Shown: positions 7,946 to 40,671, counted from the first letter of the stretch. The stretch: 64,000 nucleotides of DNA from Candidatus Dormiibacterota bacterium (GCA_003151935.1 PLYZ01000067.1:33784-97783), one strand, 5' to 3'. Translations and numbers: made by a program. Notes: generated by a model from the letters alone, not told the origin.

Positions 7946-8770
7946 TCACCGATTCGCCACCAGCAGCTCCAGCGAGTCGACGAGCCTCGGGCCGGGCCGG
8001 TTGAAATAGGCGGATCCATCGAGGACGACAACGCGCTGTGCGCCCACCGCTTCGATCCGCTCGCGCACTCCGTCGGCTTCCGTCTTTGCCCGGGCGAGGT
8101 CGAAGCCGCACGGCGCCAGGATCAGCAGCTCCGGCCGCGCAGCCATCACCTCGCTCCAGTCCATCGCCACCGACGGGACGCCGGGCCGCGCCAGGCGATC
8201 GTCGATGCCGGCCAGGGCCAGCAGATCCGGCGTCCAGTGCCCGGCTCGATAAGGTGGATCGAGCCACTCGAGAAAAACGCCGCGGACTCTCGGAAGCAGG
8301 CGCACCTTCTGAGAAGCGGCCTCGATGCGCCGGCGCAACCCCTTCATCAACTCCGTGGGGTCGGCGCGACATGCCTGGGCCAGCTCTTCGATGTCGGTGA
8401 GAACGTCCTCGAAGGAATGAGGATGCTGCCGGATCATGCGAATTCCAGCGAGGTCCTGCGCGACCTGGTCGGCCGGAATCGCGCAAACGTCGCAGATGTC
8501 CTGCGCGACCACGAGGTCGGGCTCGAGTGCGAGGATGGCGTCGGTGTCGACGGAGTAAAGCGATCGGCCCTCCATCGCGGCCAGTGACACCTCCGCGTCG
8601 ATCGCACCGCTCGGCTTGTCGAAGAGCCGGAGCGTCGACCGCGTGACGATCGGGCGCGAGGCCGCCTCAGGTGGGTAGTCGCATTCGTGGGTGACGGCGA
8701 CGACCTGGTCCCCAAGCCCGAGCGCGAAAAGTGTTTCTGTCGCGCTCGGCAGAAGCGACACGATCCTCAT
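7946..8770 (-). CDS. BtuF/FhuD-type (Peripla_BP_2) binding protein without a signal peptide
   Basis: MRIVSLLPSATETLFALGLGDQVVAVTHECDYP...EPDLVVAQ...ELLILAPCG is the class III SBP fold. It starts directly with the first beta-strand, so there is no export signal. The ATG overlaps the upstream stop (ATGA). Confidence 0.75.
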   Translation of the reverse strand: MRIVSLLPSATETLFALGLGDQVVAVTHECDYPPEAASRPIVTRSTLRLFDKPSGAIDAEVSLAAMEGRSLYSVDTDAILALEPDLVVAQDICDVCAIPADQVAQDLAGIRMIRQHPHSFEDVLTDIEELAQACRADPTELMKGLRRRIEAASQKVRLLPRVRGVFLEWLDPPYRAGHWTPDLLALAGIDDRLARPGVPSVAMDWSEVMAARPELLILAPCGFDLARAKTEADGVRERIEAVGAQRVVVLDGSAYFNRPGPRLVDSLELLVANR

Positions 8771-9399
8771 CCGGCGCCGCCCTCTTGCCGCAATCGTTCG
8801 AGGACCTGCTGGAAGGCTTCGTACGGCTGGGCGCCGAGCACCAGGTAGCGCTGCCCAAAAATGTGCGCCGGGATGGCGTTGATTCCGACCGACTCGGCCT
8901 CGGCGCGATTCTTGTCGATCACGAGCGCGTAGCGATCCTCATCGATCGCCTTCCTCAGTTCGGTCGCATCCAGGCCGACTCCAACCCCGATCCGCACGAG
9001 GTCGTCCGTGTCCTCGAGCCGTCCGCTCCCCTCCCAGTGCGCCTTGAACAGCGCTTGGTGCATCGCCTCGAACTTTCCGTGCTCGCGCGCGAACTCCGCG
9101 GCGCCCAGCGCGCGGCGAGAGTTGATGATCACGTCGCGCTGCTGCATGGTGAGGCCGACCTCTGCAGCGATCTCCTCCAGGTGTTTTCGTATCTGTTCAA
9201 AGCGCGCGCCACCGAAATATGCTTCGCGCGGAATTCCCTCGAGAGGAGCCTCGGGGTGAAGCTCGTAGGGCAGCCAGGTCACGTGCACGAGGTTCTCCCG
9301 CTCGAGCTGCTCGACTCGGACCGAGTCGATGTAGCACCAGGGTCAAACGTAGTCGGAGAAAACGATCAGCTCGGCCGGCGCGGGTGGATTCATAGCCAT
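8767..9399 (-). CDS. DsbA/FrnE-like thiol-disulfide oxidoreductase with in-frame TGA (9345-9343) at the first Cys of the CPWC motif; candidate selenoprotein (U-P-W-C)
   Basis: The track ORF 8767..9288 lacks the redox helix. The same frame upstream reads MAMNPPAPAELIVFSDYV-TGA-PWCYIDSVRVEQLERENLVHVTWLPYE.... A hairpin lies 13 nt downstream of the TGA. Confidence 0.7.
9311..9329 (-). promoter_or_regulatory. SECIS-like hairpin downstream of the DsbA-like UGA
   Basis: The minus-strand RNA UCGACUCGG-U-CCGAGUCGA is a perfect palindrome. The stem starts at +14 from the UGA and the apical loop contains G and U. Confidence 0.55.
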
Positions 9400-9481
9400 C
9401 TGGAAACTATCCCTGAACCGGGAGGAGCGGGCGGGCCTGGTGCTCTCCGGCGCCGTCAAGACCCAGGCCCATCCGCAAGAG

Positions 9482-10348
9482 CTAGACTCGGGCCGCCGCC
9501 ACCTGCGCCGCGACCCGCGCGTTGTTGACCACCAGCTCGACGTTCAGATCGACGGATCGCCCTCCTGAGAGCTCCGCCATCCGCGCGAGCAGTCTTGGGG
9601 TGAGCTCCGATCCCGCGACGCCGGCGAGCTCTTGCACGGCGCGCTGAGCCAGCTCTTCCGCGCCGTCGAGCTCTCCGGGCGGTGGGACGGCCACGACGAT
9701 GCCACGCGTGCCCGTGTCCCAGGCGGCTCGCAGCACGCGTGCCGCTTCCTGCGGCCCGTCAACTCGAGCGCTAACCCGGCAGCCGCTGTGCCGCGTGTAG
9801 AACGCGGGGAACTCGTCGCAGCCGTAGCCGAGCACCGGGACGGAGAGGCTCTCCAGCCGCTCGAGCGTGAGCGGGAGGTCCAGCACGATCTTGGCCCCGG
9901 CGCAGAAGACCGCCACCGGCGTTCGACCCAGCTCCAGCAGGTCGGCCGACTGGTCTTCCGGATGCCCGCGGTGGACACCGCCGATTCCGCCGGTGGCAAA
10001 GAAGCGGATCCCGGCCATGGCGGCCGCGCGCATCGTCGCGGCCACCGTTGTCGCACCGACCTCGCCTCTGGCGATGGCCGGCCCGAGATCGCGCGAGCTC
10101 ACCTTGACGGCTCCCGCCGCCACCCGCTCGAGGTCACCGGCGCTCAGCCCGATGCGCAGCTTTCCATCGAGCACGGCCACGCTTGCGGGAACACCACCTT
10201 CCGCCCTTATCGCGGCCTCGCATTCGAACGCGGCTCGCAGGTTGTGCGGCGCCGGCAGGCCCTGCCCGACGATCGACGTCTCGAGAGCGACCACCGGGCG
10301 TCCAGCTGCTATGGCGTCCGCGACCTCTCGCGATATTTCGAGGACCAA
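9482..10348 (-). CDS. psuG: Pseudouridine-5'-phosphate glycosidase
   Basis: EISREVADAIAAGRPVVALETSIVGQGLP... is the IndA/PsuG pattern. TTG 10348 was chosen, just after the psuK stop. The track ORF starts at GTG 10444 inside psuK. Confidence 0.85.
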   Translation of the reverse strand: MVLEISREVADAIAAGRPVVALETSIVGQGLPAPHNLRAAFECEAAIRAEGGVPASVAVLDGKLRIGLSAGDLERVAAGAVKVSSRDLGPAIARGEVGATTVAATMRAAAMAGIRFFATGGIGGVHRGHPEDQSADLLELGRTPVAVFCAGAKIVLDLPLTLERLESLSVPVLGYGCDEFPAFYTRHSGCRVSARVDGPQEAARVLRAAWDTGTRGIVVAVPPPGELDGAEELAQRAVQELAGVAGSELTPRLLARMAELSGGRSVDLNVELVVNNARVAAQVAAARV

Positions 10349-10350
10349 GG

Positions 10351-11190
10351 TCAGCCGGGCCGCCCGCCGGTTCGCGTGACGGCTTCCGAGGCGACGATCA
10401 CCGCTCGCTCGGCCGCTGCCACCGGCGTGGCGCCGCGGAGCCACGCAGAGCAGAAGGCCGCGGCGAACGCGTCACCGGCGCCGGTGACGTCGACGTGCTG
10501 CACCACCGGAGCGGGTATGAGACGCCCGAACACGCTGCAGCCGAGGGAGCCAAGCTTGATCACGGGCACCTGCGCCATGTGCTCGACGGGAATTCCGATC
10601 GCCGCCACCTCCGCCTCTGTGCCGAATAGCAGCTCAGGCTTGAGGCGCGCCAGGTCGTAAGCCATTCTCGTGGGGCCGTATTCCTGCAGGCCGGCGACCG
10701 ATGAAAGGTCGATCGACAGCATTCCGCCGCCGTCGCGAACGAGCGTGATCGCGGCGCGCGTCGCCTGGCCGAGCGGATTCAGGAACAGCGAATAGGCGGG
10801 GACGTGGATCAGCTTCACGCCGTCGAACCAGGCCTCGACCAGGTCGTCCGGGCGCAACCCGACGCTGGCTCCGCGCTGGGTGGCCATGGCGTTCGCACCG
10901 TCGACTCCCACCAGGACAGCGATCGCACCGGTCGGCTCGCCGGCCCAGACCGGGCACACCTCGACGCCTTTGGCCTCGAGGTCTGACACCAGGCGCCTGC
11001 CGCGATCATCGTCTCCGACCCTCGTGACCAGGCGCACCGGCTCTCCCAGCGCGGCGGCCCAGGCGCAGAAGTTGGCCGCCTGGCCTCCACCGCCGACTCC
11101 TATCTTTGCCGATCGATCATCGTCAGGCCGCAGCGGGCCGTCGGGGACGATCGTGATGTCGAGGAGCAGGTCTCCGATGGAGAGAATCAT
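10351..11190 (-). CDS. psuK: PfkB-family sugar/nucleoside kinase (pseudouridine kinase-like)
   Basis: GGGGQAANFC...DVTGAGDAFAAAF motifs of ribokinase-like kinases. It lies directly upstream of psuG. Confidence 0.75.
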   Translation of the reverse strand: MILSIGDLLLDITIVPDGPLRPDDDRSAKIGVGGGGQAANFCAWAAALGEPVRLVTRVGDDDRGRRLVSDLEAKGVEVCPVWAGEPTGAIAVLVGVDGANAMATQRGASVGLRPDDLVEAWFDGVKLIHVPAYSLFLNPLGQATRAAITLVRDGGGMLSIDLSSVAGLQEYGPTRMAYDLARLKPELLFGTEAEVAAIGIPVEHMAQVPVIKLGSLGCSVFGRLIPAPVVQHVDVTGAGDAFAAAFCSAWLRGATPVAAAERAVIVASEAVTRTGGRPG

Positions 11191-11238
11191 TCGGCAACGA
11201 GGATAGCTGCGGCGCGCGAGCGGCTGCCGCGAGATGCT

Positions 11239-11802
11239 TCAGCCGGAGTGGACCTTGAAGATCAGCGCGTAGCCCTTGCCTGATTTGTTCACCACGTGGG
11301 CGCCCGCATCCAGCTCTTTCAACTTCTTCCGCACGCGGCTGATGTACGTGCGGAGCGATTCCTCAGGGAGCCGGTCGTCGTGCCACGTTTCCACCAACAG
11401 CTGCTGTGCCGAGAAGTACTTTTCGGGTCGGCTCATCAGCTTGGCCAGGATCTGAAACTCGCGTTTGGTCAGCGTGACCGAGCTCTCGCGGTAGGTGAGG
11501 GTCCTGGTCTTGGAGTCGATCGCGATCTCCTCCAGCTCGAGCTGCCGCTGGACCCAGTAACCCAGGCGCCTCCGATACCTCTTGAGCTGCAAGTCGATCA
11601 GCGTGATGTCATCGTTGAGGTCTGTTTTGGCCGCCGCGGAGACATGCATGAGGTCGCCGGTCACGCGCTGCAACAGGTCTTCCTTGAAGGCGATCATCTC
11701 CCGGTAGACGCTGATCCAGTGCCTTGTGTCCTGAGGCCTCAACGACTCCGGATCTTCGCCTTCGAGCAGGCGGTCGCGTTTAGGCCGCGCTTGGGGCACC
11801 AA
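11239..11802 (-). CDS. OmpR/PhoB-type winged-helix DNA-binding protein lacking a receiver domain
   Basis: The C-terminus LTKREFQILAKLMSRPEKYFSAQQLLVETWHDDRLPEESLRTYISRVRKKLKE...GKGYAL is a Trans_reg_C domain. The N-terminal ~95 aa are helical and charged, with no D-box/REC motifs. Confidence 0.7.
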   Translation of the reverse strand: MVPQARPKRDRLLEGEDPESLRPQDTRHWISVYREMIAFKEDLLQRVTGDLMHVSAAAKTDLNDDITLIDLQLKRYRRRLGYWVQRQLELEEIAIDSKTRTLTYRESSVTLTKREFQILAKLMSRPEKYFSAQQLLVETWHDDRLPEESLRTYISRVRKKLKELDAGAHVVNKSGKGYALIFKVHSG

Positions 11803-11900
11803 CCGATCCTACGCTTCGAATTGGTGCTGAAATTAGTGCGGAATGCCGCCAGAGCGTGGCTCCAGGCAAGGCGCCTTGAGCCAGAGCAAGCGTGTAAGGC

Positions 11901-12815
11901 TCAGCGCGGCATTGCGGGTGTGAGGAGACCCCACGCCTCCAACCGATCCCGGAGTTTGGCTTCGGACCGGTCGTCGAGCGGCTGAACCGGTGCGGCGCAC
12001 CAGGGCTCGCAGATTGCCTGCACGTGACAGGCGGCCTTGATCGCTGCAGGGAAGACGCCACCGCGCAGGAGCATCACCAGCTCGTACAGCCGGTCCTGGC
12101 CGTCGCGTGCAGCGACGAGGTCGCCGCTTTGGAAAGCCTCGAAGAGGCGAACGATCCAGCGAGGTGCCACGTTGGCCGCGCCGCAGATGGTGCCCGCGCC
12201 GCCCATGACGAGCGACGGCAGCAGCATGGTGTCGCTGCCTGTGAAGATGCGGAACGCGGGCATGTCTCGGGTGGCGAGGGCGACCGCCTCGAAATACTCG
12301 AAGTCCCGGCTCGAATCCTTTATGCCCGCGATGGTTCCCTCGCCGGCGAGGGTGGCCACCGTCGTGGGCTGCGCCACCACCTTCGTGTACTGCGGGATGT
12401 TGTAAAGCAGGATCGGGATCGGGCTGTTCCTCGCCACCTGCCGGTAGAAGGCGAGCAGGGTTGCCTGGTCGATGAGGTAATAGAAGGGAGGAGCGACCAG
12501 CGCGGCCGCCGCGCCGAGGCGTCCCGCCGCCTCCACCTCGATGCGCGCCGCCGAGAGGTGGCTCTGCGCCACCCCGCAGATCACGGGGACGCGCCCGTCA
12601 GCAGCCGCCACGACGCTCGAGAGAAGCGCTCGCCGCTCGGTTTCATCGAGCGAGGCGGTCTCGCCGGTCGATCCAAGCGCCAGGAGTCCATGGACACCGC
12701 CCTGGATCACGTGATCGACCAGGCGCCCCACTGCGGGCTCATCCACCTTCCCATCGCTCCGCAGGGGCGTGATGAGCGCCGGCAGCACCCCAGTCAGCTT
12801 TTCGACCTTGAACAT
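11901..12815 (-). CDS. Dihydrodipicolinate synthase-family (DapA/NAL-type) lyase
   Basis: GVLPALITPL...GVHGLLALGSTGE...PILLYNIP pattern of the DHDPS family. The specific substrate cannot be told from the sequence. Confidence 0.8.
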   Translation of the reverse strand: MFKVEKLTGVLPALITPLRSDGKVDEPAVGRLVDHVIQGGVHGLLALGSTGETASLDETERRALLSSVVAAADGRVPVICGVAQSHLSAARIEVEAAGRLGAAAALVAPPFYYLIDQATLLAFYRQVARNSPIPILLYNIPQYTKVVAQPTTVATLAGEGTIAGIKDSSRDFEYFEAVALATRDMPAFRIFTGSDTMLLPSLVMGGAGTICGAANVAPRWIVRLFEAFQSGDLVAARDGQDRLYELVMLLRGGVFPAAIKAACHVQAICEPWCAAPVQPLDDRSEAKLRDRLEAWGLLTPAMPR

Positions 12816-12826
12816 TTCAGGTAAGG

Positions 12827-13633
12827 CTAACCGGCCGCTCGGCTGTGTTCAGCGATACGGACCACCAGGTCGCGCTGCTCGGGCGTGAAGAACGGCACAT
12901 CGCCCGCCGAAGCGTTCTCGCGGACGTGGTCTTCCTGCTGGGTTGCGGTGAGGACGGCGCTCACCCGCGGGTCGCTTGCGACCCACTTCAGGACCGCCTG
13001 AGCCCAGGTGCTCACCCCAAGCTCCTCGAGCTGCGCAGGCGACGGACGGCGGTCGAGGATGCCGTGCTGTAGGGGGCTCATGACCAGGACCCCCAGGCCC
13101 ATCGATTCCGCCAGCGGCAGCAGCTCCCGCTCCGCGGTCCGGCGCAGCGGGTTGTAGGGGATCTGCACCATGTCCAGGCGCTTGGTCTTCATCAGGGCGG
13201 CCAGGTCTCGAAATGCCGACTCCTGATAGTGGGTGGCGCCCACCGCCCGCACCTTTCCCTCGCGTTTCAGGCGTTCGAGCAGAGCGAGCTGCACCGGCAC
13301 GTTGAGAAGGTTGTGAACCTGGTAGATGTCGACATGGCCGAACAGGCGTAAGGCGTGATCAGCCTGCCGCTCGCCCTCTTCGGCGCCGGCGGTCCAGATC
13401 TTGGTCGCCACAACCACGCGCTCGCGGACGCCCTCGAGCGCTCGAGAGAGGGTGGTCTCAGCTCGACCGTACATGGGCGACGAATCGAACAGATCGATGC
13501 CGGACTCGATCGCGAGCTCGACCAGCGGACGGCGGTCCTCGTCGGTATCGAACGTGCGCCAGGTCCCCATGCCGATGGCGGGGACTTCGATCGACGTGCG
13601 GCCAAGAAGGCGGCTAAGTCGGCGGCGGTCCAT
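12827..13633 (-). CDS. Aldo/keto reductase
   Basis: IGMGTWRTFD...DLFDSSPMYGRAE...ATKIW...YQVHN pattern of AKR proteins. Confidence 0.85.
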   Translation of the reverse strand: MDRRRLSRLLGRTSIEVPAIGMGTWRTFDTDEDRRPLVELAIESGIDLFDSSPMYGRAETTLSRALEGVRERVVVATKIWTAGAEEGERQADHALRLFGHVDIYQVHNLLNVPVQLALLERLKREGKVRAVGATHYQESAFRDLAALMKTKRLDMVQIPYNPLRRTAERELLPLAESMGLGVLVMSPLQHGILDRRPSPAQLEELGVSTWAQAVLKWVASDPRVSAVLTATQQEDHVRENASAGDVPFFTPEQRDLVVRIAEHSRAAG

Positions 13634-13668
13634 CCTCAGACCTTAGCGACAACTAGCATTTACGCCAC

Positions 13669-14355
13669 ATGACGCTGATGGCAAAGCTTGTAACGGAGCT
13701 GGTCGGCTCTTTCGTTTTCATGACCGTGATCGCACTATCCGGCGGGATCGGTTCGCTCGCCCCGCTCGCGATCGGGCTTGCCCTGACAGCGATGGTCTAC
13801 ATGGGCGGGCATGTGTCGGGCGCCCACTACAACCCGGCGGTCTCGTTAGGGCTGTTCTTACGCAAGGTCATAGACGCACGGACGATGGCGGCCTACTGGG
13901 GCGCGCAAATTCTTGCTGCGTTGCTCGCCTTCACGTTCGCCTACCTGCTCACCGGTCGGGCCGCGGGCGTCCACCCGGGTTCAGGTGTCTCATGGCTCTC
14001 TGCCCTGGCCGCCGAGGTCGTATTCACGGCCGCACTCGTCACCGTGATCTTCAACGTCGCCGCGACACGCGCCACGGCCGGCAATTCCTTCTACGGGATT
14101 GCGATTGGCTTCACCGTGGCTGCCGGCGCGTTTGCAGTGGGACCAATCTCCGGCGCGGCATTCAATCCAGCGGTCGGCATCGGGAGCACCTTGGTCGGTG
14201 TGGTCGCCGGCCACGGTTCGTGGGCAGACCTCTGGCTGTACATCGTGGGACCGCTGGCCGGAGCTGCGTTGGGCGCGGGCATCCACGCGATCCAGACGCC
14301 CGCCGAGCCGGTCACCCCGGAGAGTTCGGAGAGGCGCCTGGACTCGGCCGTCTGA
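13669..14355 (+). CDS. MIP-family channel (aquaporin/glycerol facilitator)
   Basis: Two NPA boxes (GAHYNPAVS and GAAFNPAVG) and six hydrophobic segments. Confidence 0.9.
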   Translation: MTLMAKLVTELVGSFVFMTVIALSGGIGSLAPLAIGLALTAMVYMGGHVSGAHYNPAVSLGLFLRKVIDARTMAAYWGAQILAALLAFTFAYLLTGRAAGVHPGSGVSWLSALAAEVVFTAALVTVIFNVAATRATAGNSFYGIAIGFTVAAGAFAVGPISGAAFNPAVGIGSTLVGVVAGHGSWADLWLYIVGPLAGAALGAGIHAIQTPAEPVTPESSERRLDSAV

Positions 14356-14364
14356 CCGCCGCCT

Positions 14365-15249
14365 CTAGCCCGCGGAGGCCACGAACCGGTTGCGCAGAAG
14401 GCCTATACCCCGAACCTCCGTCTCCATGACGTCGCCCGGCTTGAGGAACTCAGGCGGAGTGCGGGCGAAGCCCACTCCATCCGGCGTTCCGGTTGCGATG
14501 AGCGTGCCGGGCAAGAGGGTCATGCCCTTGGACACCCATTCGATGATCGCGTCGACGGGGTAGATCATGTCGCGGGTGTCACCTTCCTGCTTCACGGTGC
14601 CGTTGACCCGAAGAAAGAGCTTGAGCGCCTGCGGGTCTTCCACCTCGTCTCTTGTCACCACCCACGGACCGGTCGGGCAGGAACGGTCGAGGCTCTTGCC
14701 CTTGAAGTACTGGCCGCCCCATCCGCTCTGGATGTCGCGCGCGGTGACGTCGTTCAGAACGGTGTAGCCGAAGACGTGATCCAGCGCACGCGCGCGCTTG
14801 ATGTTCGCTCCGGGCTTGCCGATGACGACGGCGAGCTCAACCTCCCAGTCGATCTTGTCGCTGATGCTCGGGTCGATCGCGATCTCGGCGAATGGCTCCG
14901 TCAGCGACGTGATGGCCTTGGTGAAGATGGTGGGCGGGGCGGGCTCGCGGCCGTCCATGAATGCGGTTTCCTCGGCATGCTTCTGGTAGTTGCGTCCGAT
15001 CGCGATCACGTTGCCTCGCGGATCATCGAGTGGCGCCAGGAGCTCGAGGTCCGCGAGCCGGTGGGATTTCGAGTGGGAAGAGGACAGCGCGGCTCGGACG
15101 CGGGCCAGGCCCTCGTCACCCGCGTCGATCAGCGCCCGCATGTCCGCGGGCTCCCTGAGCTCCACGACCTCGTCGTTTTCATCGTTACTTCCCGGCCGCA
15201 ACGCGCCCAATCTGCGATCACCGCCGGCTTTGAACATCAGAAGTCTCAT
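14365..15249 (-). CDS. Fumarylacetoacetate hydrolase-family protein
   Basis: C-terminal FAH-domain pattern (GRNY..H..E...PPTIFTK...WEVELAVVIG...GYTVLNDVTARD...GTP.GVG). The start overlaps the livF-like stop. Confidence 0.85.
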   Translation of the reverse strand: MRLLMFKAGGDRRLGALRPGSNDENDEVVELREPADMRALIDAGDEGLARVRAALSSSHSKSHRLADLELLAPLDDPRGNVIAIGRNYQKHAEETAFMDGREPAPPTIFTKAITSLTEPFAEIAIDPSISDKIDWEVELAVVIGKPGANIKRARALDHVFGYTVLNDVTARDIQSGWGGQYFKGKSLDRSCPTGPWVVTRDEVEDPQALKLFLRVNGTVKQEGDTRDMIYPVDAIIEWVSKGMTLLPGTLIATGTPDGVGFARTPPEFLKPGDVMETEVRGIGLLRNRFVASAG

Positions 15250-16052
15250 CTCTTGTCGTCATCCTCCTCTGGCGAAGCCGGGGTGCTGGTCCCGGCTCCT
15301 AAAAACAGCTCCTCAAAGTCCTCACGCCTGAGGAGCTCGTCCGGGCGTCCTTCCAGCCTGGTCTGCCCGGAGACCAGGACGCTTGTCCAGTCGGCGATCT
15401 GCAGGGCCGCCCGCGCCCGCTGCTCAACCAACAACACCGCTTTGCCTATGCTCGCCAGCCGCTTCACGTGCTCGGTCAGCAGGGCGTCGGCGAGCTTCGG
15501 CGACAGGTTCGCCGTGGGCTCGTCGAGGATCAAGACCTTGGGGTCCAGCATCAGGACGCGGGCGATGGCCAGCATCTTCCGTTCGCCACCGCTCAGCTTG
15601 TCCGCGCGCCGCTTGAGCATGGGAGGCAGCTGCGGAAACACGTCTCCGACCTCTGCGACCCGTGTTCGGACCTGTGCGGAGGTGAGCAGGTATCCGCCCA
15701 TCTCCAGGTTCTCCAGCACGGTCAGAGGCTCGAAGATGTCGTTGACCTGCGGCACATATCCGACGCCGCGCTTGGCCAGGTCTTCGGGCGGGTGATTGGT
15801 GACGTCGTCCTCGCCCAGCAGAACCCTGCCGCCGGTCACCCTCAGGATGCCGACCAGGCTTTTCAGTAGGGTGCTCTTGCCAGCGCCGTTGGGTCCGATG
15901 ATCGCGACGATCTCCTTCGGCCCGACCGAGATCGACACGTCGCGTATGACGGGCACGCCGCCGTAGCCCGAGGTGACGTGCTCGGCTCGAAGGCTTGGTG
16001 CCGGCCGGCCCTCCACGCGCTGCTGGCTATCCAACGAGGTAAGCGTCAACAA
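15246..16052 (-). CDS. livF: HAAT-family (Liv-type) ABC transporter ATP-binding protein
   Basis: Walker A GPNGAGKST, signature LSGGERKM and Walker B LILDEP. Has a C-terminal acidic tail. The start may be slightly downstream, because the current one overlaps livG by 26 nt. Confidence 0.85.
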   Translation of the reverse strand: MLTLTSLDSQQRVEGRPAPSLRAEHVTSGYGGVPVIRDVSISVGPKEIVAIIGPNGAGKSTLLKSLVGILRVTGGRVLLGEDDVTNHPPEDLAKRGVGYVPQVNDIFEPLTVLENLEMGGYLLTSAQVRTRVAEVGDVFPQLPPMLKRRADKLSGGERKMLAIARVLMLDPKVLILDEPTANLSPKLADALLTEHVKRLASIGKAVLLVEQRARAALQIADWTSVLVSGQTRLEGRPDELLRREDFEELFLGAGTSTPASPEEDDDKR

Positions 16053-16800
16053 TCTCCTGCTGCTTCCTGAGGCTCGACATGGTCCCGCTGCCGATGACCT
16101 TGCCCTGTGCCATCACGACCACCGTGTCGCACAGCCGCTCGACCATGTGCAGCTCGTGCTCGACCATCAGGATCGTCAGGCCTTCGTGGCGCAGGTCCTG
16201 GAGGTAGTACTGAATCTCCTGCACGATCTTCGGATGCACGCCAGACATAGGCTCGTCGAGCAGGAGGAGCCGTGGCTGCAGCATCAAGGCACGCATGATC
16301 TCGATCAGGCGCTTCTGGCCGCCGCTCATCGTGCCGGCGTAGTCCGACTCCTTCGCCGACATGCCGAAGCGCTTGAGCAAGGCTCGTGCCTGCTGGACCA
16401 GCTTGCGCTCGTCCTCGATCCAGTAGCGCTTTCCCATGAGGGCTCCAAACAGCGAGTCGCCTCGGTTGTGCTGCGCAGCCACGAGCAGGTTCTCGAGCAC
16501 GGTCAGCCGCGCGAATTCGGAGGGCAGCTGGAACGTGCGGACGAGGCCGAGCCGCGCCCGCCTATAGGCGGGGAGCCGGGTAATGTCCTTGCCGTCGAAC
16601 ACGATCGTTCCGCTGCTGGTCGGCAGCGTGCCCGCAATGACGGCCATGAAGGTGGATTTACCGGCGCCGTTCGGCCCGATCAAGCCGGTGATCTTTCCGG
16701 GCGCGACTTCGATCGAGACTCCGTCCACTGCGTGCATGCCCTCGAAGTGTCGGTGGATGTCGGTGGCCACGAGCATCGGCTGGTCGGACCGAGGCGTCAT
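16027..16800 (-). CDS. livG: HAAT-family (Liv-type) ABC transporter ATP-binding protein
   Basis: GPNGAGKSTF, MSGGQKRLIEI and LLLLDEP motifs. ATG 16800 (MTPRSDQPMLVATD...) was chosen. The upstream 163 codons of the track ORF lie inside livM. Confidence 0.9.
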   Translation of the reverse strand: MTPRSDQPMLVATDIHRHFEGMHAVDGVSIEVAPGKITGLIGPNGAGKSTFMAVIAGTLPTSSGTIVFDGKDITRLPAYRRARLGLVRTFQLPSEFARLTVLENLLVAAQHNRGDSLFGALMGKRYWIEDERKLVQQARALLKRFGMSAKESDYAGTMSGGQKRLIEIMRALMLQPRLLLLDEPMSGVHPKIVQEIQYYLQDLRHEGLTILMVEHELHMVERLCDTVVVMAQGKVIGSGTMSSLRKQQEIVDAYLVG

Positions 16801-16808
16801 TGGGGAGC

Positions 16809-30410: not shown

Positions 30411-31145
30411 GTGGCGATTCTGATCGATCGCGAGGAAGTCCAGGCCCTGGTCAAGCAGGGCGCACAGCTGGTCGAGGTGCTTCCCGCGAAGGAATACGCC
30501 GAGGATCACCTTCCAGGAGCTGTGAGCCATCCGCTCCGGCAGCTGGACAAAGAGGCCAACCAGATCGATCGCAACCGGCCCGTGATCGTCTACTGCTGGG
30601 ATGCCGCTTGAGACATGGCGCCCAGGGCCGCGGCGCGGCTCGAGAGTCTCGGATTCGACAGAGTCCATGAGTACAGGGCGGGCAAGCTCGACTGGCTGGC
30701 CGCCGGGCTGCCGGCCGAGGGCGAAAACTCGAACTGCCCACGCGCGGGCGAAGCGTCCCGCAAAGACGTGGTCGTCTGCGGCTTGAAGGACCGCTTGGGC
30801 GACGTCCGCGAGCGCGCGAGACAGGCGGGCTGGGACGTCGCAGTGGTCGTCGACGAAGAGCACATCGTGCTCGGGCTGATGAGGTCGAAGCAGCTGGAGA
30901 TGGATCCCAACCTGGCGATCGAGCTGGCCATGCGCCCGGGTTCCAGCACGTTTCGTCCTTACGTGTCGACCAAAGAGATGGCCGACTTCATGGTTGAGCA
31001 CGACCTCGACAGTGCTCCGATCACGACCTCGGACGGAAAACTCGTCGGCGTGCTGCTGAAGTCGGACACCGTACGCCTGGCGGCGGACGCCACCGCCTGC
31101 ACCCGCAAGCTGATAATCACGGCCGACCCGGCAGCCGACGCTTAG
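30411..31145 (+). CDS. Rhodanese-CBS-pair fusion protein with in-frame TGA (30609-30611) in the active-site loop; candidate selenoprotein (C-W-D-A-A-U)
   Basis: Track ORFs 30411..30611 and 30615..31145 share a frame and are separated only by TGA-GAC. Joined, they read ...RPVIVYCWDAA-U-DMAPRAAARLESLGFDRVHEYRAGKLDW..., one uninterrupted rhodanese domain followed by two CBS motifs. Confidence 0.65.
30625..30641 (+). promoter_or_regulatory. Hairpin 13 nt downstream of the rhodanese UGA (possible SECIS)
   Basis: GGGCCGC-GGC-GCGGCUC forms a 7-bp stem including one G-U pair. The small G-rich loop has no U, so it is less canonical than the other two hairpins. Confidence 0.35.
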
Positions 31146-33309: not shown

Positions 33310-33423
33310 ATTCGTACTCCAGTCCAGGGTGTCACGCTCCGCTGCGCCCGTCGCCGTGCCGTCGGCTGGGGACTCGCCCCTCCGTTCATATGGGCCCCAG
33401 GCGGCCGTGGCCTTGGTTAATGT

Positions 33424-34866
33424 GTGGTCATGGCTGAGCACGAGATCGGCGTAGTCGGCCTCGCCACGATGGGCGAGAACCTGGCGCGCAACCTCGCGTC
33501 GCACGGTGCGCACGTCGTTGTCTACAACCGGACTCGGAAGCGAACCGACGGTTTCATGGCTGCGTACTCGGCCGGCGGCGACTTCCGGGCGGCCGGCTCG
33601 TTGGAAGAGCTGGCGCGGATCCTCAAGCCGCCTCGCGCGATCCTCCTCATGGTGAAGGCCGGGTCCGCGGTCGACGAGGCGATCGACTCCCTGTCAAAGG
33701 TGCTCGAGCCTGGCGACACGATCATCGACGGCGGCAACTCGCTCTTTCACGACACCCGGCGCCGCGCCGAAGCCTCGGAGAAAGCGGGCCTGGGGTTCAT
33801 CGGCGCGGGCGTCTCAGGTGGGGAGGAGGGAGCCCTCCGTGGACCCAGCATCATGCCGGGCGGCTCGCGCGCGTCTTATGAGCGTGTTGCGGAGATGCTG
33901 ACGGGGATCTCGGCCAAGGTCGATGGAACGCCGTGCTGCGCGTACATCGGACCGGACGGGGCCGGCCACTTCGTGAAGATGGTGCACAACGGGATCGAGT
34001 ACGCCGATATCCAGCTGATCGCCGAGACGTACGACTTCCTACGCCAGGCCCTGGGCATGACGCCGGGGGAGCTGGCTGCTGTCTTTCGCGAGTGGAACGA
34101 GGGCGAGCTGCAGTCCTACCTGATCGAGATCACGGCCAACGTGCTGGCCAAGGACGACGGCGCGAGTGGATCGGCGCTCGTCGACGCGATAGTCGATCAG
34201 GCCGAGCAAAAAGGCACAGGGCGATGGACGAGCGAATCGGCGCTGGAGCTCGGCGTGCCGCTGACGGGCATCACCGAGGCGGTGTTCGCGCGCATCGTCT
34301 CGAGCCAGAAGGCGCAGCGGGTCAAGGCTGCAGACATCCTCGCGGGACCGACGGGACGCGGATCCGCCGGACCCAACCCCGGCCTGGTCGATGATGTGCG
34401 CGAGGCGCTCTACGCGTCGAAGATCGTCGCTTACGCGCAGGGCTTCGAGCACCTGCGCGCCGGATCAAAGGAGTTCGGATGGGACCTCGATCTAGGCGCG
34501 CTCGCCACGATCTGGAGAGGTGGCTGCATCATCCGGGCGCGCTTTCTCGACCGGATCAAGGATGTGTATGCCGAGTCCCCGGACCTACCGAATCTCATGC
34601 TGGCCCCGTTTTTCCAGCAGGCGCTTGCGACAGCGCAAAAGCCATGGCGCTCCGTCGTCAAACAGGCGGTGGACCACGGCGTGCCCATCCCTGCCTTCGC
34701 CTCATCGCTGGCGTATTACGACGGCTACAGGCGGGCGCGCGGCCCCGCCAACCTCATCCAGGGCCTGCGCGACTACTTCGGATCGCACACCTACCATCGA
34801 AGCGATCGCGAGGGCTCCTTCCACACGCGCTGGGCGCAGGATGGAGCCGAGGTCCGGACCGACTAG
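33424..34866 (+). CDS. gnd: 6-phosphogluconate dehydrogenase (decarboxylating)
   Basis: IGVVGLATMGENLARNL...GAGHFVKMVHNGIEYADIQLI... is the canonical Gnd pattern. Start GTG 33424 or ATG 33430. Confidence 0.95.
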   Translation: MVMAEHEIGVVGLATMGENLARNLASHGAHVVVYNRTRKRTDGFMAAYSAGGDFRAAGSLEELARILKPPRAILLMVKAGSAVDEAIDSLSKVLEPGDTIIDGGNSLFHDTRRRAEASEKAGLGFIGAGVSGGEEGALRGPSIMPGGSRASYERVAEMLTGISAKVDGTPCCAYIGPDGAGHFVKMVHNGIEYADIQLIAETYDFLRQALGMTPGELAAVFREWNEGELQSYLIEITANVLAKDDGASGSALVDAIVDQAEQKGTGRWTSESALELGVPLTGITEAVFARIVSSQKAQRVKAADILAGPTGRGSAGPNPGLVDDVREALYASKIVAYAQGFEHLRAGSKEFGWDLDLGALATIWRGGCIIRARFLDRIKDVYAESPDLPNLMLAPFFQQALATAQKPWRSVVKQAVDHGVPIPAFASSLAYYDGYRRARGPANLIQGLRDYFGSHTYHRSDREGSFHTRWAQDGAEVRTD

Positions 34867-35921
34867 GCGGCTTTCGCCACCTTCGAGCGCAGCTTCCGCT
34901 TGAGCAAGGCGACGACCGCCGCTTCGTCAGCCCTGAGCTGGCGGTGGGCCTTGCCTGCCCCCAGGCTGCACGCGCTCTCGAGCGATCCGTCCATGTACGA
35001 ATCGATCACCGCCGGATATACATAGGCGCGGCGGCAGACGGCTCGTGAGTGTCCCAGTCTGCGTGCGACGCTGTCGATCGCGCTGACCACGTTGCGATTG
35101 GCCTCAGGTTCCGATTCGAAGCCGCCTGCTTCGCGCAGTGCGGATGTGGCCAGGACGGTGGCGGCCCAGGTGCGGAAATCCTTGGCCGTGTAATGCTCGC
35201 CGCTCACCGCGTGCAAATACTGGTTGACGTCGTCGGACGTCACCGTTCTCCGATTTCCATCGGTGTCGATGTACTGGAACAGCATCTGGCCGGGCAGCTC
35301 TTCGCATCGCTTGACCACTCCCGCGACCCTCCGATTGGTGATGCCGACCGCGACATCCCGGCCGCTCTTCCCTCTGAAGAGGAATCGCACCGTCGACCCT
35401 GTGACCTTCACATGCCGGCTGCGCAGCGTCGTGAGGCCGAACGACCCGTTGTCTCGCGCGTACTCCTCGTTGCCGATGCGCATGAATGTGAGCTCGAGCA
35501 GCCTGACGATGGTCGCGATGACTTTCTCGAGCGGCAGTCCGGGTTGCCCCAGGTCGCGCGTTACGCGGCGCCGGATTCGTGGCAGCGCGCGGGCGAATCC
35601 GGCGAGACGCTCGAACTTGTCGGCGTCGCGAACCTCTCTCCACTTTGCGTGGTAGATGTGCTGCTTGCGCCCTCGCGCGTCACGTCCGGTGGCCTGCAGG
35701 TGACCACGCGGCCGGGTGGAGATCCACACGTCTTTCCAGGCGGGCGGAATGACGAGGTCTCGGATCCGACCCAGCGTGGCCACGTCGGCCACCGGCTTGC
35801 CATCAGGGTTCCAGTAGGCGAAGCCCTTTCCCTTACGCACCCGCCGGATGCCAGGTTCGGCGTCCGAGGTGTAGACGAGCCCTGCCTCCTCGCGCGCTTC
35901 GGCAGCCGGGTCGAGGTTCAC
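34863..35921 (-). CDS. DNA topoisomerase IB (poxvirus-like bacterial TopIB)
   Basis: ...[11 protein letters not shown]...[19 protein letters not shown]...TAKDFRTW... and a C-terminal CRRAYVYP region with the catalytic Tyr. The start overlaps the kbl stop by 4 nt. Confidence 0.85.
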
Positions 35922-37105
35922 GCTGACTGCGCAACCTCCTGCCGCGTCTCGACGAATGCGGTGACCGCGCGTTCGAGATCGGCTTTCGAGTGCGCGGCCG
36001 AGACCTGCGTCCTGATCCGGGCCTTGCCTTGCGGCACCACCGGATACGAGAAGCTGACCACGTACACGCCTTTTTCGAGCATGACCTGGGCTATGCGGGC
36101 GGCCAGTGTCGCGTCGCCGACCATGACGGGCACGATCGGGTGGTCGCCGGGCAGGATGTCAAAGCCGGCAGCAGTCATCTGCCGGCGGAAATAGACCGTG
36201 TTGTCGCGCAATCGCTGACGGAGCTCGCCGGCCGTCCGGATCAGCTCCAGCACCTTCAGGCTCCCGGCGACGATCGCAGGCGCCACCGAGTTGGAGAAGA
36301 GGTAAGGACGCGAGCGCTGCCGGAGCATGGCAACCAGCTCCTTGCGTCCGGAGATGTAGCCGCCGCTCGCGCCGCCAAGCGCCTTGCCGAGCGTCCCGCT
36401 GATCGCATCGATCCTGCCCATGACGCCGTGGTGCTCGTGGGTGCCGCGCCCACCCGCACCCATGAATCCGACGGCATGCGAGTCGTCGATCATGACGAGC
36501 GCGTCATGGCGCTCGGCGAGCTCGCAGATCTCGGGTAGGGGCGCCAGGTACCCGTCCATCGAGAAAACCCCGTCCGTGACCACCATCCGGAAACGCGCTC
36601 CCGCGCTGTCCACGAGCTGGCGTTCGAGGTTGTTCATGTCGCGGTTTGCATAGCGCAGGCGCTTGGCCTTGCACAGCCGGATCCCGTCGATGATGCTCGC
36701 GTGATTGAGCGTGTCCGAGATCACCGCGTCGCGTTCGTCGAGGAGAGCCTCGAAGATCCCTCCGTTGGCGTCGAAGCAGGATGAATAGAGGATGGTGTCC
36801 TCGGTGCCCAGGAAATCCGTGAGCGCGGCCTCGAGCTTCTTGTGGATCTCCTGCGTGCCGCAGATGAACCGAACCGAGGCCATGCCGTAGCCCCAGCGAT
36901 CCAGGGCCTCTTTTGCCGCCGCGACGATGTCCGGGTGGTCGGCCAGCCCAAGGTAGTTGTTGGCGCAGAGGTTGAGGACGTCGTGGTCGAGCACGCTGAC
37001 GACCGAGCCCTGCGGTCCCATCAGCACGCGCTCCTGTTTCTCCAACCCCGCGCTGCGGATCTCATCGAGCTGGCTCACCAAGTGCGCTTGCATTTTTTTG
37101 AACAT
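35918..37105 (-). CDS. kbl: Glycine C-acetyltransferase (2-amino-3-ketobutyrate CoA ligase)
   Basis: 395-aa alpha-oxoamine synthase pattern (NNYLGL..., [17 protein letters not shown]). Directly downstream of tdh. Confidence 0.9.
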
Positions 37106-37119
37106 TCAGGTTTCCTCTG

Positions 37120-38151
37120 CTAGGCCGCGGTCCAGTCGAGCACGACCTTGCCGCAGCGGCCGGAGTGGGCGACGGTGAAGGCCTCCTCGAACTGGTGATA
37201 CGGGAAGCGATGAGTGATGACCGGCGAGATGTCGAGGCCGGTCTGGGTGAAGACCGACATCTGGTACCACGTCTCGAAGATCTGACGGCCGTAGACACCT
37301 TTGACCGTAAGCATCTTGAAGACGACCTGAGACCAATCGATGGGAAACTCGTGGTCCGGCAACCCGAGCATGGCAACGCGTCCGCCGTGGGCCATGGTCG
37401 CGATCATGTCGCGCAGCGCGCTTGCCTGTCCCGACATCTCGAACCCGACGTCGAATCCCTCTTTCATGCCGAGCTCTTCCTGCACCTGCGCGAGGGTAGT
37501 CGTGCGAACGTCGACCGCACGCGTCACGCCGACCTTGCGCGCCAGCTCGAGCCGGTATTCGCTGACGTCGGTGATGACGACGAAACGCGCGCCGTTGTGG
37601 CGCGCAACCATGGCCGCCATGATCCCGATCGGGCCCGCGCCAGTGACCAGCACGTCCTCGGCGACGACGCGGAACTGGGTTGCCGTGTGGACGGCGTTGC
37701 CGAACGGGTCGAAGATGGCAGCGACGTCGAGGTCGATCTTGGTCAGGTGCGGCCAGAGGTTGATGGCCGGCATGACTATGAGCTCGGCGAACGCGCCGTC
37801 ACGCTGAACGCCGATACCGACAGTGTTCGCGCAAAGGGCGCGGCGTCCGGCCAGGCAGTTGCGGCAGCGCCCGCACACGATGTGCCCCTCGGCTCCGACG
37901 ATCTCGCCCGGATAGACGGACGCGACGCCCTCTCCCAATTGCAGCACCTCGCCGACGAACTCGTGTCCGATCACAAGCGGCGGTTGGATGGTCGCCCGCG
38001 CCCATTCGTTCCAGCTCTCGATGTGGAGGTCTGTGCCACAGATGCCCGTTCGCAGGACGCGAATCAACACCTCACCGGGGCCGGGGGTCGGATCCGGGAC
38101 CTCCTGCAGCCACAGGCCCGGCGCCGCCTTCGCTTTGACCAGCGCCTTCAC
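37120..38151 (-). CDS. tdh: L-threonine 3-dehydrogenase
   Basis: [21 protein letters not shown]...ICGTDLHI...GHEFVGEV... is the Zn-ADH/Tdh pattern. GTG 38151 matches the usual MKAL... N-terminus; GTG 38199 is the alternative. Confidence 0.9.
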
Positions 38152-38281
38152 TCCCGGCAGGATAGCCCGGGTGCCGGGAGGAGATCGATGCCTCGTCACG
38201 TTCTGTGCGGCGCGCTGAGCATCAAAGCGGTGACCCGCATTTCAAGAGCCGCACCGGGCAGTTGGTTATGTTTCGCCTGGC

Positions 38282-39475
38282 ATGAAGCTGCGGATCGGGA
38301 TCGTCCTGCTGCTGGTCGTCCTCGGCCTGGGGACCTGGAACTATCTCCGCCCGATTCCCGGAGTGGCGGCCACCGGCTCGCCTCCCGCCAGCGAGGTGAT
38401 CGCCGGCACGCCGCCCGCGATGCCCTGGCCGAGCCGTGGTTCGGCCGCCGTCGGCGTCCAGAACCTCGGGTTCATAGCGAGCTCGGGCAACGAGCAGGCC
38501 ATTCCGGCCGCCAGCGTCACCAAGGTCATGACCGCGTTGGTGATCCTCGAGGACAAGCCGCTGAAGACAGACGACCCCGGGCCCACGATCACTCTCACCG
38601 ACGTTGACGTCCAGGCGTACGTCGCGGACCTCGCAAACAAGGAGTCTGTGGCCGCGGTGCAGGCCGGCGAGCAGATCACGGAGCTCCAGGCCCTCCAGGG
38701 CATGTTGATCCCGTCCGCGAACAACCTCGCAGAGACGCTTGCCCGCTGGGATGCCGGTTCGATCGATTCATTCGTCGCCAAGATGAACGCCCGCGCCGTG
38801 GCCTTGCACCTTACCCACACCAGGTTTGCGGACACGAGCGGAGCCAATCCAGGCAGCGTCAGCACGCCGACCGATCTCATATCGCTCGGCATGGCGGCGA
38901 TGCAGCAAGAGGTGTTCGCCCAGGTGGTCGGGATGGGCTCGGCCGTGATTCCAGTAGCGGGCACCGTCTACAACGTCGACGGCGTCCTCGGGCAGAGCGG
39001 GATCATCGGTATCAAGACCGGCTCCGGCCTGAATGCCGGAGCGAACTTTCTGTTTGCCGCGACCATATCCGTGGACGGAGTGCCGATCACGTTCTATGGA
39101 TGCGTGATGGGCCTGTCGACATTGGCCGACACGTTCGCGGCGGCCAAGACCTTGATCGGAGCGATGCAGGCGGCCCTGCACGTACGCCATGTCATCGCCC
39201 GCAATCAGACCATCGCCACCTACATCACTCCTTGGGGCGCGCAATCAGACCTGGTCTCGTCGGTCGACGTCAATCTGGTCGAGTGGCCCGGCATGGTGCT
39301 GAGGCAGCGTCTCGACACGCGGACGATCGTTGTCGACCAGCCGCTCGCGGCGGGCACGCAGGAGGGCACCGAGCACATGGTTCTGGGTGACTACAGCCTC
39401 GACATCCCGCTGGTCACGGCCGACCCGATGTATCCACCCGGCCGCTTCTGGCGGCTGACTCGCCTGAGCTTCTGA
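38282..39475 (+). CDS. D-alanyl-D-alanine carboxypeptidase (S11 penicillin-binding protein)
   Basis: SxxK (SVTK), SxN (SANN) and KTG (KTGSG) motifs, with an N-terminal hydrophobic signal/anchor. Confidence 0.85.
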   Translation: MKLRIGIVLLLVVLGLGTWNYLRPIPGVAATGSPPASEVIAGTPPAMPWPSRGSAAVGVQNLGFIASSGNEQAIPAASVTKVMTALVILEDKPLKTDDPGPTITLTDVDVQAYVADLANKESVAAVQAGEQITELQALQGMLIPSANNLAETLARWDAGSIDSFVAKMNARAVALHLTHTRFADTSGANPGSVSTPTDLISLGMAAMQQEVFAQVVGMGSAVIPVAGTVYNVDGVLGQSGIIGIKTGSGLNAGANFLFAATISVDGVPITFYGCVMGLSTLADTFAAAKTLIGAMQAALHVRHVIARNQTIATYITPWGAQSDLVSSVDVNLVEWPGMVLRQRLDTRTIVVDQPLAAGTQEGTEHMVLGDYSLDIPLVTADPMYPPGRFWRLTRLSF

Positions 39476-39524
39476 TCGCAGGTCGAGTCAGAATTGGCGA
39501 GCGATCTCCGAGGAGGTAACCGGT

Positions 39525-39938
39525 ATGCCAAAAGTAAAAGGGACGGGCACCAAGCAGTCACCGTGGCAGCTGACGACGCCGAGCGGATCGTCTGAATACC
39601 TGATGTACAGGGACGAATCGCTCGACCCGCCGGCGATCGTCTGCATGGTCGGCAAGACCGAGCTTCGATACGACGTCCGCGCGATCGAGGACCTCCACGC
39701 GATGCTCAAGAAGCAAGGCGACTGGGTGCCGCTCGGAAGCGCCGACGAGCAGAAGCCCGCGGCGGAGGGAACCGTCGAGGCATGGGGCAGGTCGCCGAAG
39801 AACCCGGTTGGCGGATGGTATGGGCTCAAGAAGGGACTGCGCGGCCGGTTCGGCATGTACATGCCGCCGCTGCTGGAGGCGCTGGACCTCGCCGAGGTCG
39901 AGCACAATCCAAAGAACAATCGCATGCGCGCGAAGTGA
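39525..39938 (+). CDS. Conserved hypothetical protein (DUF6855-like)
   Basis: 137-aa ORF with a strong SD (GAGGAGG). The sequence ...PWQLTTPSGSSEYLMYRDE...AIEDLHAMLKKQGDWVPLGSADE...GWYGLKKGLRGRFGMYMPPLLE... recalls a family I know only as uncharacterised. Confidence 0.6.
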   Translation: MPKVKGTGTKQSPWQLTTPSGSSEYLMYRDESLDPPAIVCMVGKTELRYDVRAIEDLHAMLKKQGDWVPLGSADEQKPAAEGTVEAWGRSPKNPVGGWYGLKKGLRGRFGMYMPPLLEALDLAEVEHNPKNNRMRAK

Positions 39939-40210
39939 TCAACCCGCTGCACGAAGCGCAGATCGAATACTGCGTCCCTTGAGACTATCTAGACCAGGCC
40001 GTGGGCCTGGCCAACGAGCTCCTGAGCCGCTGGGCCCCCGTAATGCGCGCGGTCGAGCTCTCGAGCGGCAGCAGCGGCCGATTCGAGGTCACCCTCGACG
40101 GCGAGCTCCTCTTCAGCAAGAAGGCGACCGGGCGGTTCCCGAAGCCGGGTGAAGTTGCCGGGCTCTTTGAGAAAAAGCTCGGCCCGGCCCTGGAGTGGAG
40201 ACAGCATTAG
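39935..40210 (+). CDS. SelW/Rdx-family protein with in-frame TGA (39980-39982) in the CxxU motif; candidate selenoprotein
   Basis: The track ORF 40001..40210 lacks the redox motif. The same frame upstream reads V-INPLHEAQIEYCVP-TGA-DYLDQAVGLANELL.... IEYC-x-x-U is the Rdx signature. GTG 39935 overlaps the upstream stop (GTGA). Confidence 0.75.
39994..40010 (+). promoter_or_regulatory. SECIS-like hairpin downstream of the SelW-like UGA
   Basis: CCAGGCC-GUG-GGCCUGG is a 7-bp perfect stem starting 11 nt after the UGA, with G and U in the apical loop. Confidence 0.6.
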
Positions 40211-40264
40211 GCTGCCGCTTCTGTAACAGTCCGCTCAGTTTCGACACCAGGCATCGATGACCGA

Positions 40265-40487
40265 TTGCGCAACCCTTGTCAGCTAGATCGCGCTCTTATC
40301 CTGGGCCACCGGCGGAGGATCGACCGGGAGATGGTGCGCGAAGCGGCCTGGCCCAAGGAGCAAGCACCGGCGATGTTCATCTGTGGGCCGACCGCATTCG
40401 CCGAGACTGCGGCCGATTTGCTAGTTGAAGCGGACTACGAGCCCGGCCTGGATCAAGACCGAGCGATTTGGCGCCACCGGAGGATGA
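40265..40487 (+). pseudogene. C-terminal remnant of an FNR-like FAD/NAD-binding oxidoreductase (N-terminal ~2/3 missing, 1-nt frameshift near the end)
   Basis: ...GHRRRIDREMVREAAWPKEQAPAMFICGPTAFAETAADLLVEADYEPG in one frame, then the canonical ending WIKTERFGATGG* in another frame (stop 40485-40487). Confidence 0.6.
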
Positions 40488-40671
40488 CGATGGAGATATC
40501 TGAGGCGACGTCAACCCGGTGGGACGGGTCCACGTTTACATCCAGGCGCCGGGCGTCGTCGTCCGCTGCCCCGACTGTGAGCAGGTCCTTATGCGCGTGG
40601 TGCAAGGGCGCGGTCGGTCCTGGGTCGACCTGCGCGGGATGCGCTGCCTGGAGTTCGCCGCTTCCCAGTAG
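40468..40671 (+). other. DUF6510-like zinc-ribbon ORF interrupted by in-frame TGA (40501-40503): pseudogene or fourth Sec candidate
   Basis: The frame reads ...EDDDGDI-TGA-GDVNPVGRVHVYIQAPGVVVRCPDCEQVLMRVVQGRGRSWVDLRGMRCLEF.... The TGA aligns with the second Cys of the family CxxCG motif as I remember it. The N-terminal part of the family is missing. Confidence 0.3.

Follow-up and report, generated by a model that had tools for sequence, protein, structure and literature searches.

We analyzed a 64,000-nucleotide (nt) stretch of DNA from a Candidatus Dormiibacterota bacterium (GCA_003151935.1, contig PLYZ01000067.1, positions 33784–97783; hereafter "the window"), in which three genes for redox proteins contain an in-frame TGA: a DsbA/FrnE-like thiol-disulfide oxidoreductase gene, a rhodanese-CBS fusion gene, and a SelW-like gene of the Rdx family (Table 1). 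An initial annotation, made from the sequence alone, had read these TGAs as selenocysteine (Sec, U) codons at cysteine (Cys)-equivalent positions, each followed by a hairpin, and had put forward a DUF6510-like open reading frame (ORF) as a possible fourth case. The four TGAs and the hairpins assigned to them are all present in the sequence at the places given. Judged by domain content, homologs, and conservation, the first three are very probably dispersed, unlinked selenoprotein genes of Dormibacterota with the motifs UPWC, CWDAAU, and CVPU, and the fourth a pseudogene.

Table 1. Positions in the window of the three redox genes, the DUF6510 remnant, and their associated features (aa, amino acids; bp, base pairs; bSECIS, bacterial selenocysteine insertion sequence)
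Feature	Position	Strand	Details
DsbA/FrnE-like thiol-disulfide oxidoreductase gene	8767..9399	−	210 aa read through TGA; ATG at 9399; active site U-P-W-C
Predicted Sec codon TGA, DsbA-like gene	9343..9345	−	residue 19
bSECIS-like hairpin, DsbA-like gene	9311..9329	−	8-bp stem UCGACUCG/CGAGUCGA, loop GUC
Rhodanese-CBS fusion gene	30411..31145	+	244 aa read through TGA; GTG start with GGAG upstream; loop C-W-D-A-A-U
Predicted Sec codon TGA, rhodanese-CBS gene	30609..30611	+	residue 67
bSECIS-like hairpin, rhodanese-CBS gene	30625..30641	+	7-bp stem GGGCCGC/GCGGCUC, loop GGC
SelW-like (Rdx family) gene	39935..40210	+	91 aa read through TGA; GTG start; motif C-V-P-U
Predicted Sec codon TGA, SelW-like gene	39980..39982	+	residue 16
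bSECIS-like hairpin, SelW-like gene	39994..40010	+	7-bp stem CCAGGCC/GGCCUGG, loop GUG
Remnant of FAD_binding_6/NAD_binding_1 reductase C-terminus	40318..40487	+	1-nt insertion (frameshift); from DNA alignments to loci L005 and L169
DUF6510 pseudogene	40484..40671	+	ancestral start ATG 40484/40490; out-of-frame deletion; C-terminal 55 codons in other frame
Fourth TGA, DUF6510-like ORF	40501–40503	+	in frame with downstream DUF6510 codons
DUF6510 hairpin	40514–40529	+	5-bp stem ACCCG/CGGGU, loop GUGGGA; starts 10 nt after TGA

Three redox genes with an internal TGA

Third-position G+C content and codon-usage scores indicate coding sequence on both sides of the TGA in all three genes, and each TGA falls inside a single Pfam match: DSBA in the DsbA-like protein (110.1 bits against a cut-off of 25.6, residues 11–200), Rhodanese (PF00581) in the fusion protein (49.3 bits against 22.2, residues 7–97, with CBS at residues 174–222), and Rdx (PF10262; SelW/T/H) in the SelW-like protein (70.8 bits against 22.6, residues 9–75). 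These families, together with the comparison to Cys homologs that the initial annotation had called for, agree with its description of three unlinked redox genes with TGA at a Cys-equivalent position; for the DUF6510-like ORF, the corresponding alignment is a deletion artifact (see below).

The Cys ortholog of the DsbA-like protein, P0006 (207 aa, 77% identity), has CPWC where the window gene has UPWC. The codon is TGA in all 79 species-representative genome loci with a locatable DsbA motif, almost all of them from Candidatus Dormibacterota. Just before the TGA, the residues Leu, Phe, Ser, Asp, Tyr, and Val show little or no variation, whereas synonymous changes are seen in their codons, so the upstream piece must be translated in the same frame. 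No signal peptide was found in the DsbA-like protein. The haem/DsbA region is adjoined by a baeRF_family10 gene (6867–7637, +), encoding a bacterial archaeo-eukaryotic release-factor-like protein, which is kept in relatives (L001, 14034–14804).

In the rhodanese-CBS protein the active-site loop reads V-Y-C-W-D-A-A-U-D-M-A-P-R-A-A. Ten full-length Cys homologs (about 55–64% identity) all keep the first Cys; at the position of U, nine have Cys and one has Arg. Among solved structures, the rhodanese domain is matched best by BH2092 (PDB 3nhv/3o3w), whose loop reads Y-C-W-G-P-A-C-N. By these alignments, Sec would replace the second Cys of a C-x4-C arrangement, five residues beyond (+5) the Cys at the catalytic position, which is itself kept. 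TGA was found at this codon in 80 of 80 retrieved metagenome rhodanese-CBS loci, down to ∼60% protein identity.

The SelW-like protein scores 57.4 against a cut-off of 34.2 with the NCBIfam model TIGR02174 (CXXU_selWTH) and carries the CxxU motif of that family, where its Cys homologs carry IEYCxPC. All four SelW loci compared (the window, L005, L169, and L170) have TGA in the identical context IEYCVP-U-DYLD. One SelW-like representative, P0300 (95 aa), has Trp at the window's Sec position (IEYCVPWDY), where others have Cys; TGG is one substitution from TGA. The GTG start of the SelW-like gene overlaps the stop of a DUF6855 gene (39603–39938, +; Pfam E = 6e-60) as GTGA, which suggests translational coupling. 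The two genes are also adjacent in L169 and L170, and not in L005.

Because the internal TGA is read as a stop, public annotations cut all three genes short, as the initial annotation had expected of standard gene callers. Close homologs of the DsbA-like protein are called as 171–173 aa, and in the best 120 public homologs listed (71–98% identical), all but the Cys form are called as 167–189 aa, starting after the TGA. The rhodanese-CBS gene is divided between two ORFs, "Rhodanese" (66 aa) and "CBS" (176 aa). Public SelW calls are 69–71 aa long, and the closest representative proteins (65–72 aa) likewise start after the TGA.

Hairpins downstream of the TGA codons

Downstream hairpins in the three genes had been placed 11–13 nt past the TGA, and the stems do begin 13 (DsbA), 13 (rhodanese), and 11 nt (SelW) downstream, with UGA-to-loop distances of 21, 20, and 18 nt and folding energies of −11.2, −12.1, and −13.2 kcal/mol, respectively. 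They share a stem of 7–8 bp and a G-first triloop 18–21 nt past the UGA, and they fit the published bSECIS model. A hairpin of this strict kind (perfect stem of at least 7 bp, starting 8–16 nt downstream, G in the first two loop positions) follows only 1.5% of in-frame codons in the window's genes. In relatives, the loop of the rhodanese hairpin is mostly GUG and its stem extends to 8 bp where CGN Arg codons are present; the SelW hairpin is retained in three relatives, where an A-U pair has become G-U and the pair that closes the loop is lost.

In alignments of 55 distinct sequences per family, 95.5% of pair cells are paired in the DsbA hairpin and 92.5% in the rhodanese hairpin, as compared to 13–55% when the pairing partner was slid by 1–3 columns as a control. 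The substitutions seen (U-A/U-G, G-U/A-U, G-C/G-U, and C-G/U-G) keep pairing, the last three of them within the core seven pairs of the rhodanese stem; its outermost eighth pair is present in 22 of 55 sequences. Terminal pairs aside (DsbA loop-closing, rhodanese outermost), all but one stem substitution keep pairing. The hairpin codons are also under selection at synonymous sites: synonymous codon diversity is 0.17 in the hairpin codons versus 0.48 elsewhere in the DsbA gene (Mann-Whitney p = 3e-4), and 0.18 versus 0.54 in the rhodanese gene (p = 7e-4). In these codons, for example, Ser is encoded only by TCG and Arg only by CGG, and 72 of 73 sequences use CTC for Leu. UGA and hairpin are thus conserved together in the loci compared for all three genes, with a roughly threefold suppression of synonymous change in the DsbA and rhodanese hairpins that points to selection on RNA structure.

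The DUF6510-like ORF

Of the proposed fourth case, the TGA and the 5-bp hairpin stand, but a Sec codon does not: the alignments identify the ORF as a pseudogene remnant and not a selenoprotein gene. Aligned with the DNA of two relatives, the window keeps the start and six codons (ATG ACG ATG GAG ATA TCT GAG GCG A), lacks the following 91 nt, and continues in another frame from CGTCAACCCGGTG, with the junction at about 40508/40509 within a short direct repeat (GAGGCGA / GCGGCGC). A deletion between such repeats joined the first 6 codons of the gene to its last 55, which lie in another frame, and the TGA, derived from the old Ser-Glu codons TCT GAG, came by chance into the downstream frame. Because of the repeat at the junction, this TGA seems to align with a TGC codon. 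The Pfam match (PF20120, 65 bits) covers only profile positions 32–84 of 86, that is, the C-terminal 53 residues, so the window copy has neither a full-length match in one frame nor both CxxC pairs of an intact DUF6510 protein.

It is therefore highly improbable that this ORF is a genuine fourth, novel selenoprotein gene with Sec in place of the second Cys of the first CxxC pair. The TGA does line up with the TGC of C-x-x-C-G in both DNA and protein alignments, the hairpin has a GU-first loop, and an in-frame start, TTG 40468, lies 11 codons upstream. However, that TTG is the only in-frame start and lies inside the reductase remnant, where the in-frame coding score upstream of the TGA is negative, and the out-of-frame deletion has removed profile positions 1–31 including the partner Cys (the first of the pair), leaving the ancestral ATGs in another frame. 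The full-length close homologs (∼50 sequences, 63–86% identity; closest 75–86%) are all intact Cys proteins of 88–92 aa with the motif T-C-x-x-C-G-A-V-N-P-V-G-R-V, and no TGA-type truncated call was seen among DUF6510 homologs (of the truncated calls P0250, P0286, and P0291, the locus of P0250 was examined). One 53-aa DUF6510 call, P0250, was considered as a Sec-type truncation and rejected, as it is cut by a contig end. Finally, the hairpin departs from the bSECIS model, with a spacing of 15 nt against a range of 16–37 nt (best compliant hairpin, −4.7), and a 5-bp stem as good as this one is found at 13% of in-frame codons in window genes.

DUF6510 proteins are small and contain four Cys, and their genes follow a FAD_binding_6 reductase gene; the position of the gene before an HD_5 gene is conserved in the window. 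Unlike other members of the family, the window copy has no counterpart to the first 31 profile positions, does not share a frame with its start codon, and stands without its operon partners. In L005 and L170, SelW and DUF6510 are separated by five genes, encoding an extracytoplasmic function (ECF) sigma factor, an anti-sigma factor, a lactonase, an Oxidored_molyb protein, and a FAD_binding_6 reductase; these are deleted in the window. The whole operon (with an anti-sigma zf-HC2 protein, and ending in DUF6510) is intact in some Dormibacterota. The regions compared were 40211–40700 of the window, L005 2144–6273, L169 6232–7273, and L170 3073–7276. Deletions have independently reduced the operon in the window, in L169 (leaving a sigma::reductase chimera), and in P0241 (a chimeric ORF, sigma::DUF6510). 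As this case illustrates, a Cys-aligned TGA and a nearby hairpin are insufficient evidence of recoding, since the same picture can arise by deletion in a pseudogene.

Gene content and scan of the window

The window has a base composition of 66% G+C and carries housekeeping and transport genes (haem biosynthesis, a branched-chain amino-acid ATP-binding cassette transporter, 6-phosphogluconate dehydrogenase, topoisomerase IB, histidine kinases, and others). Nearly all close homologs and syntenic contigs come from metagenome-assembled genomes (MAGs) of Candidatus Dormibacterota (Dormiibacterota), with a few labeled "Chloroflexi bacterium CF_n" or otherwise, and one window-encoded protein has a 100% identical match on record in NCBI, JGI, ENA, and Logan assemblies.

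TGAs with open frames on both sides, sought in a stop-to-stop scan, numbered in the hundreds at this G+C content and were uninformative alone; adding codon-usage scores reduced these to 18. Fifteen were discarded: 13 were antisense to real genes, one was an ordinary stop at a gene junction, and one lay in non-coding-looking sequence. The relaxed scan of the window yielded no UGA-recoding candidate beyond the three genes. The long, high-scoring ORF at 47170–49080 (+) is an antisense artifact, as Pfam places the real gene, an Amidohydro_3 amidohydrolase, at 46395–48018 (−); the in-frame TGA at 48019 is merely the stop of the upstream ORF. ORF length is misleading at 66% G+C.

Discussion

The three internal TGAs could be sequencing or assembly errors, or the genes could be decaying pseudogenes, and decay does exist in the window: the reductase/DUF6510 locus has suffered large deletions as well as a 1-nt insertion, and a BrkB/YihY-family membrane protein gene (61660–62450, +) appears as two overlapping ORFs through a frameshift near 61975–62000, being either a pseudogene or an assembly indel. 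However, the same TGA occupies the same codon in every independent assembly compared, from many samples (79/79, 80/80, and 4/4), the protein is under purifying selection on both sides of it, and the diversity of the surrounding sequence rules out a shared systematic base-calling artifact at TGC-like codons. This conservation excludes errors or decay for the three genes, and we regard such an origin as very improbable; random error or decay, which the initial annotation had set against its own proposal, correctly describes only the DUF6510 TGA. We give still less credence, practically none, to a genome-wide reassignment of UGA in this lineage (to Trp or Gly, for example) that would make the TGAs ordinary sense codons. 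The Trp of P0300 would fit it, but TGA is the commonest ordinary stop codon of the window, ending 35 of 59 confident genes at positions consistent with Pfam domain limits. Because TGA serves as an ordinary stop and only three internal TGAs survive the relaxed scan (three in ∼60 genes, all at redox Cys positions and all followed by a hairpin), the code has not been reassigned.

Unlikely, though less remote than these, is Sec-independent decoding, either by readthrough with a near-cognate tRNA (Trp, Cys, or Arg) or by production of two polypeptides, a short N-terminal piece and one from an internal start. Downstream start codons do exist and are used by gene callers (products beginning VHVTW, MAPRAA, and VGLAN), and the search for Sec machinery covered the window only. 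However, all three sites are Cys-equivalent members of redox pairs (UxxC, Cx4U, and CxxU) in families with known selenoprotein forms, and two separate polypeptides would divide the thioredoxin fold, the active-site loop of the rhodanese, and the CxxU motif. The geometry of the hairpins agrees with the bSECIS model, and the TGA is fixed across the phylum, where one would expect a leaky stop to be replaced by a sense codon.

In selenocysteine decoding, the short G+C-rich hairpin, 11–13 nt past the UGA with its G-first triloop 18–21 nt downstream, would act as a bSECIS element and recruit SelB carrying Sec-tRNA(Sec), and the UGA would then be read as Sec in place of a redox-active Cys. We infer that insertion depends on SelB and tRNA(Sec) and that selA, selB, selC, and selD lie elsewhere in the genome. 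Several observations weigh against Sec insertion. As the initial annotation had noted, no sel genes and no tRNA-Sec lie in the window: selA, selB, selC, and selD were all absent from it, the only part of the genome searched, and ARAGORN found no tRNAs in the window or in 60 related loci. None of the literature searched links Dormibacterota/AD3 to selenocysteine or selenium. The SelW comparison comprises four loci only. A loose bSECIS model is also satisfied by 17% of random in-frame positions in the window, Rfam at gathering thresholds found no family in the window, and single-sequence folding of the four candidates (z = −1.6, −0.1, −1.6, and −0.8) is unexceptional at 66% G+C, so the hairpins gain weight only from their geometry and cross-species conservation. 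Neither the DsbA nor the rhodanese alignment contains a two-sided compensatory base-pair change, and strict covariation is absent; because of this, the structural argument rests on synonymous-site suppression, the stronger signal.

Two of the three genes belong to selenoprotein kinds known since 2005, DsbA-like (UxxC) and SelW-like (CxxU). Form 1 of the DsbA-like selenoproteins (PF01323, UxxC), originally described from the Sargasso Sea metagenome (PMC1088965) and also listed in PMC13188914, has in common with the window gene the DSBA family, a UxxC motif whose Sec stands in for the N-terminal Cys of CxxC, and a hairpin within the coding region just past the UGA with G in the apical loop; with a PF01323 domain above cut-off and UxxC, the window protein falls into this form. 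Unlike known form 1 proteins, it belongs to a cytosolic FrnE/COG2761-like branch in which predicted Sec is fixed across Candidatus Dormibacterota. It matches no NCBIfam selenoprotein model and is consequently annotated as a truncated "DsbA family protein". The SelW-like protein is an ordinary member of the bacterial SelW/Rdx selenoproteins, with an N-terminal-proximal CxxU, a length of ∼90 aa, and the hairpin loop GUG; the only difference noted is the apparent coupling to DUF6855.

The rhodanese-CBS protein is less conventional. Five forms of rhodanese-like selenoproteins are catalogued (UxxS, UxxG, CxU ["LYCAU", NF041203], UxxG, and TsoB UxxxxU [NF045694]; PMC13188914). These share with the window protein a PF00581 domain with Sec inside the active-site loop, but C-x4-U followed by D-M-A fits none of the five motifs, and the NCBIfam scores are far below cut-off (24.7 versus 115 for NF041203 and 26.1 versus 805 for NF045694). 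The nearest in spacing is TsoB, with Sec at both the catalytic and the +5 position; unlike forms 1–5, the window protein keeps Cys at the catalytic position, would have Sec only at +5 (C-W-D-A-A-U-D), and is fused to CBS. BH2092 has the same C-W-x-x-x-C loop, its second Cys aligning with the window's U, but is an all-Cys, single-domain protein of uncharacterized function without CBS. The C-x4-U form appears to be previously undescribed, and the arrangement suggests a relay through Cys-persulfide/selenol or selenenylsulfide that lies outside the five catalogued forms.

We thus conclude that the window almost certainly carries three selenoprotein genes of known kinds, one of them a new variant, which by comparative sequence evidence are conserved across the phylum and systematically misannotated. 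In at least two cytosolic redox proteins, Sec appears to be fixed throughout this soil phylum, which implies a selenium requirement and Sec machinery in uncultured Dormibacterota. The initial annotation took the density of cases to indicate a selenoprotein-rich organism; three genes in 64 kb are suggestive of this but do not establish it, coming from one window whose syntenic loci are not independent. Candidatus Dormibacterota are abundant in soil and generally described as aerobic. It is conceivable, though we consider it doubtful, that they carry a sizeable and essentially unannotated selenoproteome, including phylum-wide Sec in cytosolic thiol-redox proteins and the C-x4-U rhodanese-CBS class; if true, this would contradict the view of selenoprotein-rich bacteria as mainly anaerobes.

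For public databases, the consequence would be that hundreds of entries are truncated or split selenoprotein products ("DsbA family protein" of 171–189 aa, "CBS domain-containing protein" of ∼175 aa, and Rdx proteins of 69 aa), whose catalytic N-termini are missing from the protein record. A Sec-DsbA locus of the typical Dormibacterota kind occurs in L011, L017, L032, L041, L045, and L088, from MAGs labeled Solirubrobacteraceae, Acidoferrum, Micrarchaeaceae archaeon, Verrucomicrobiia, or Nitrosopolaris, and these oddly labeled contigs are probably mis-binned.

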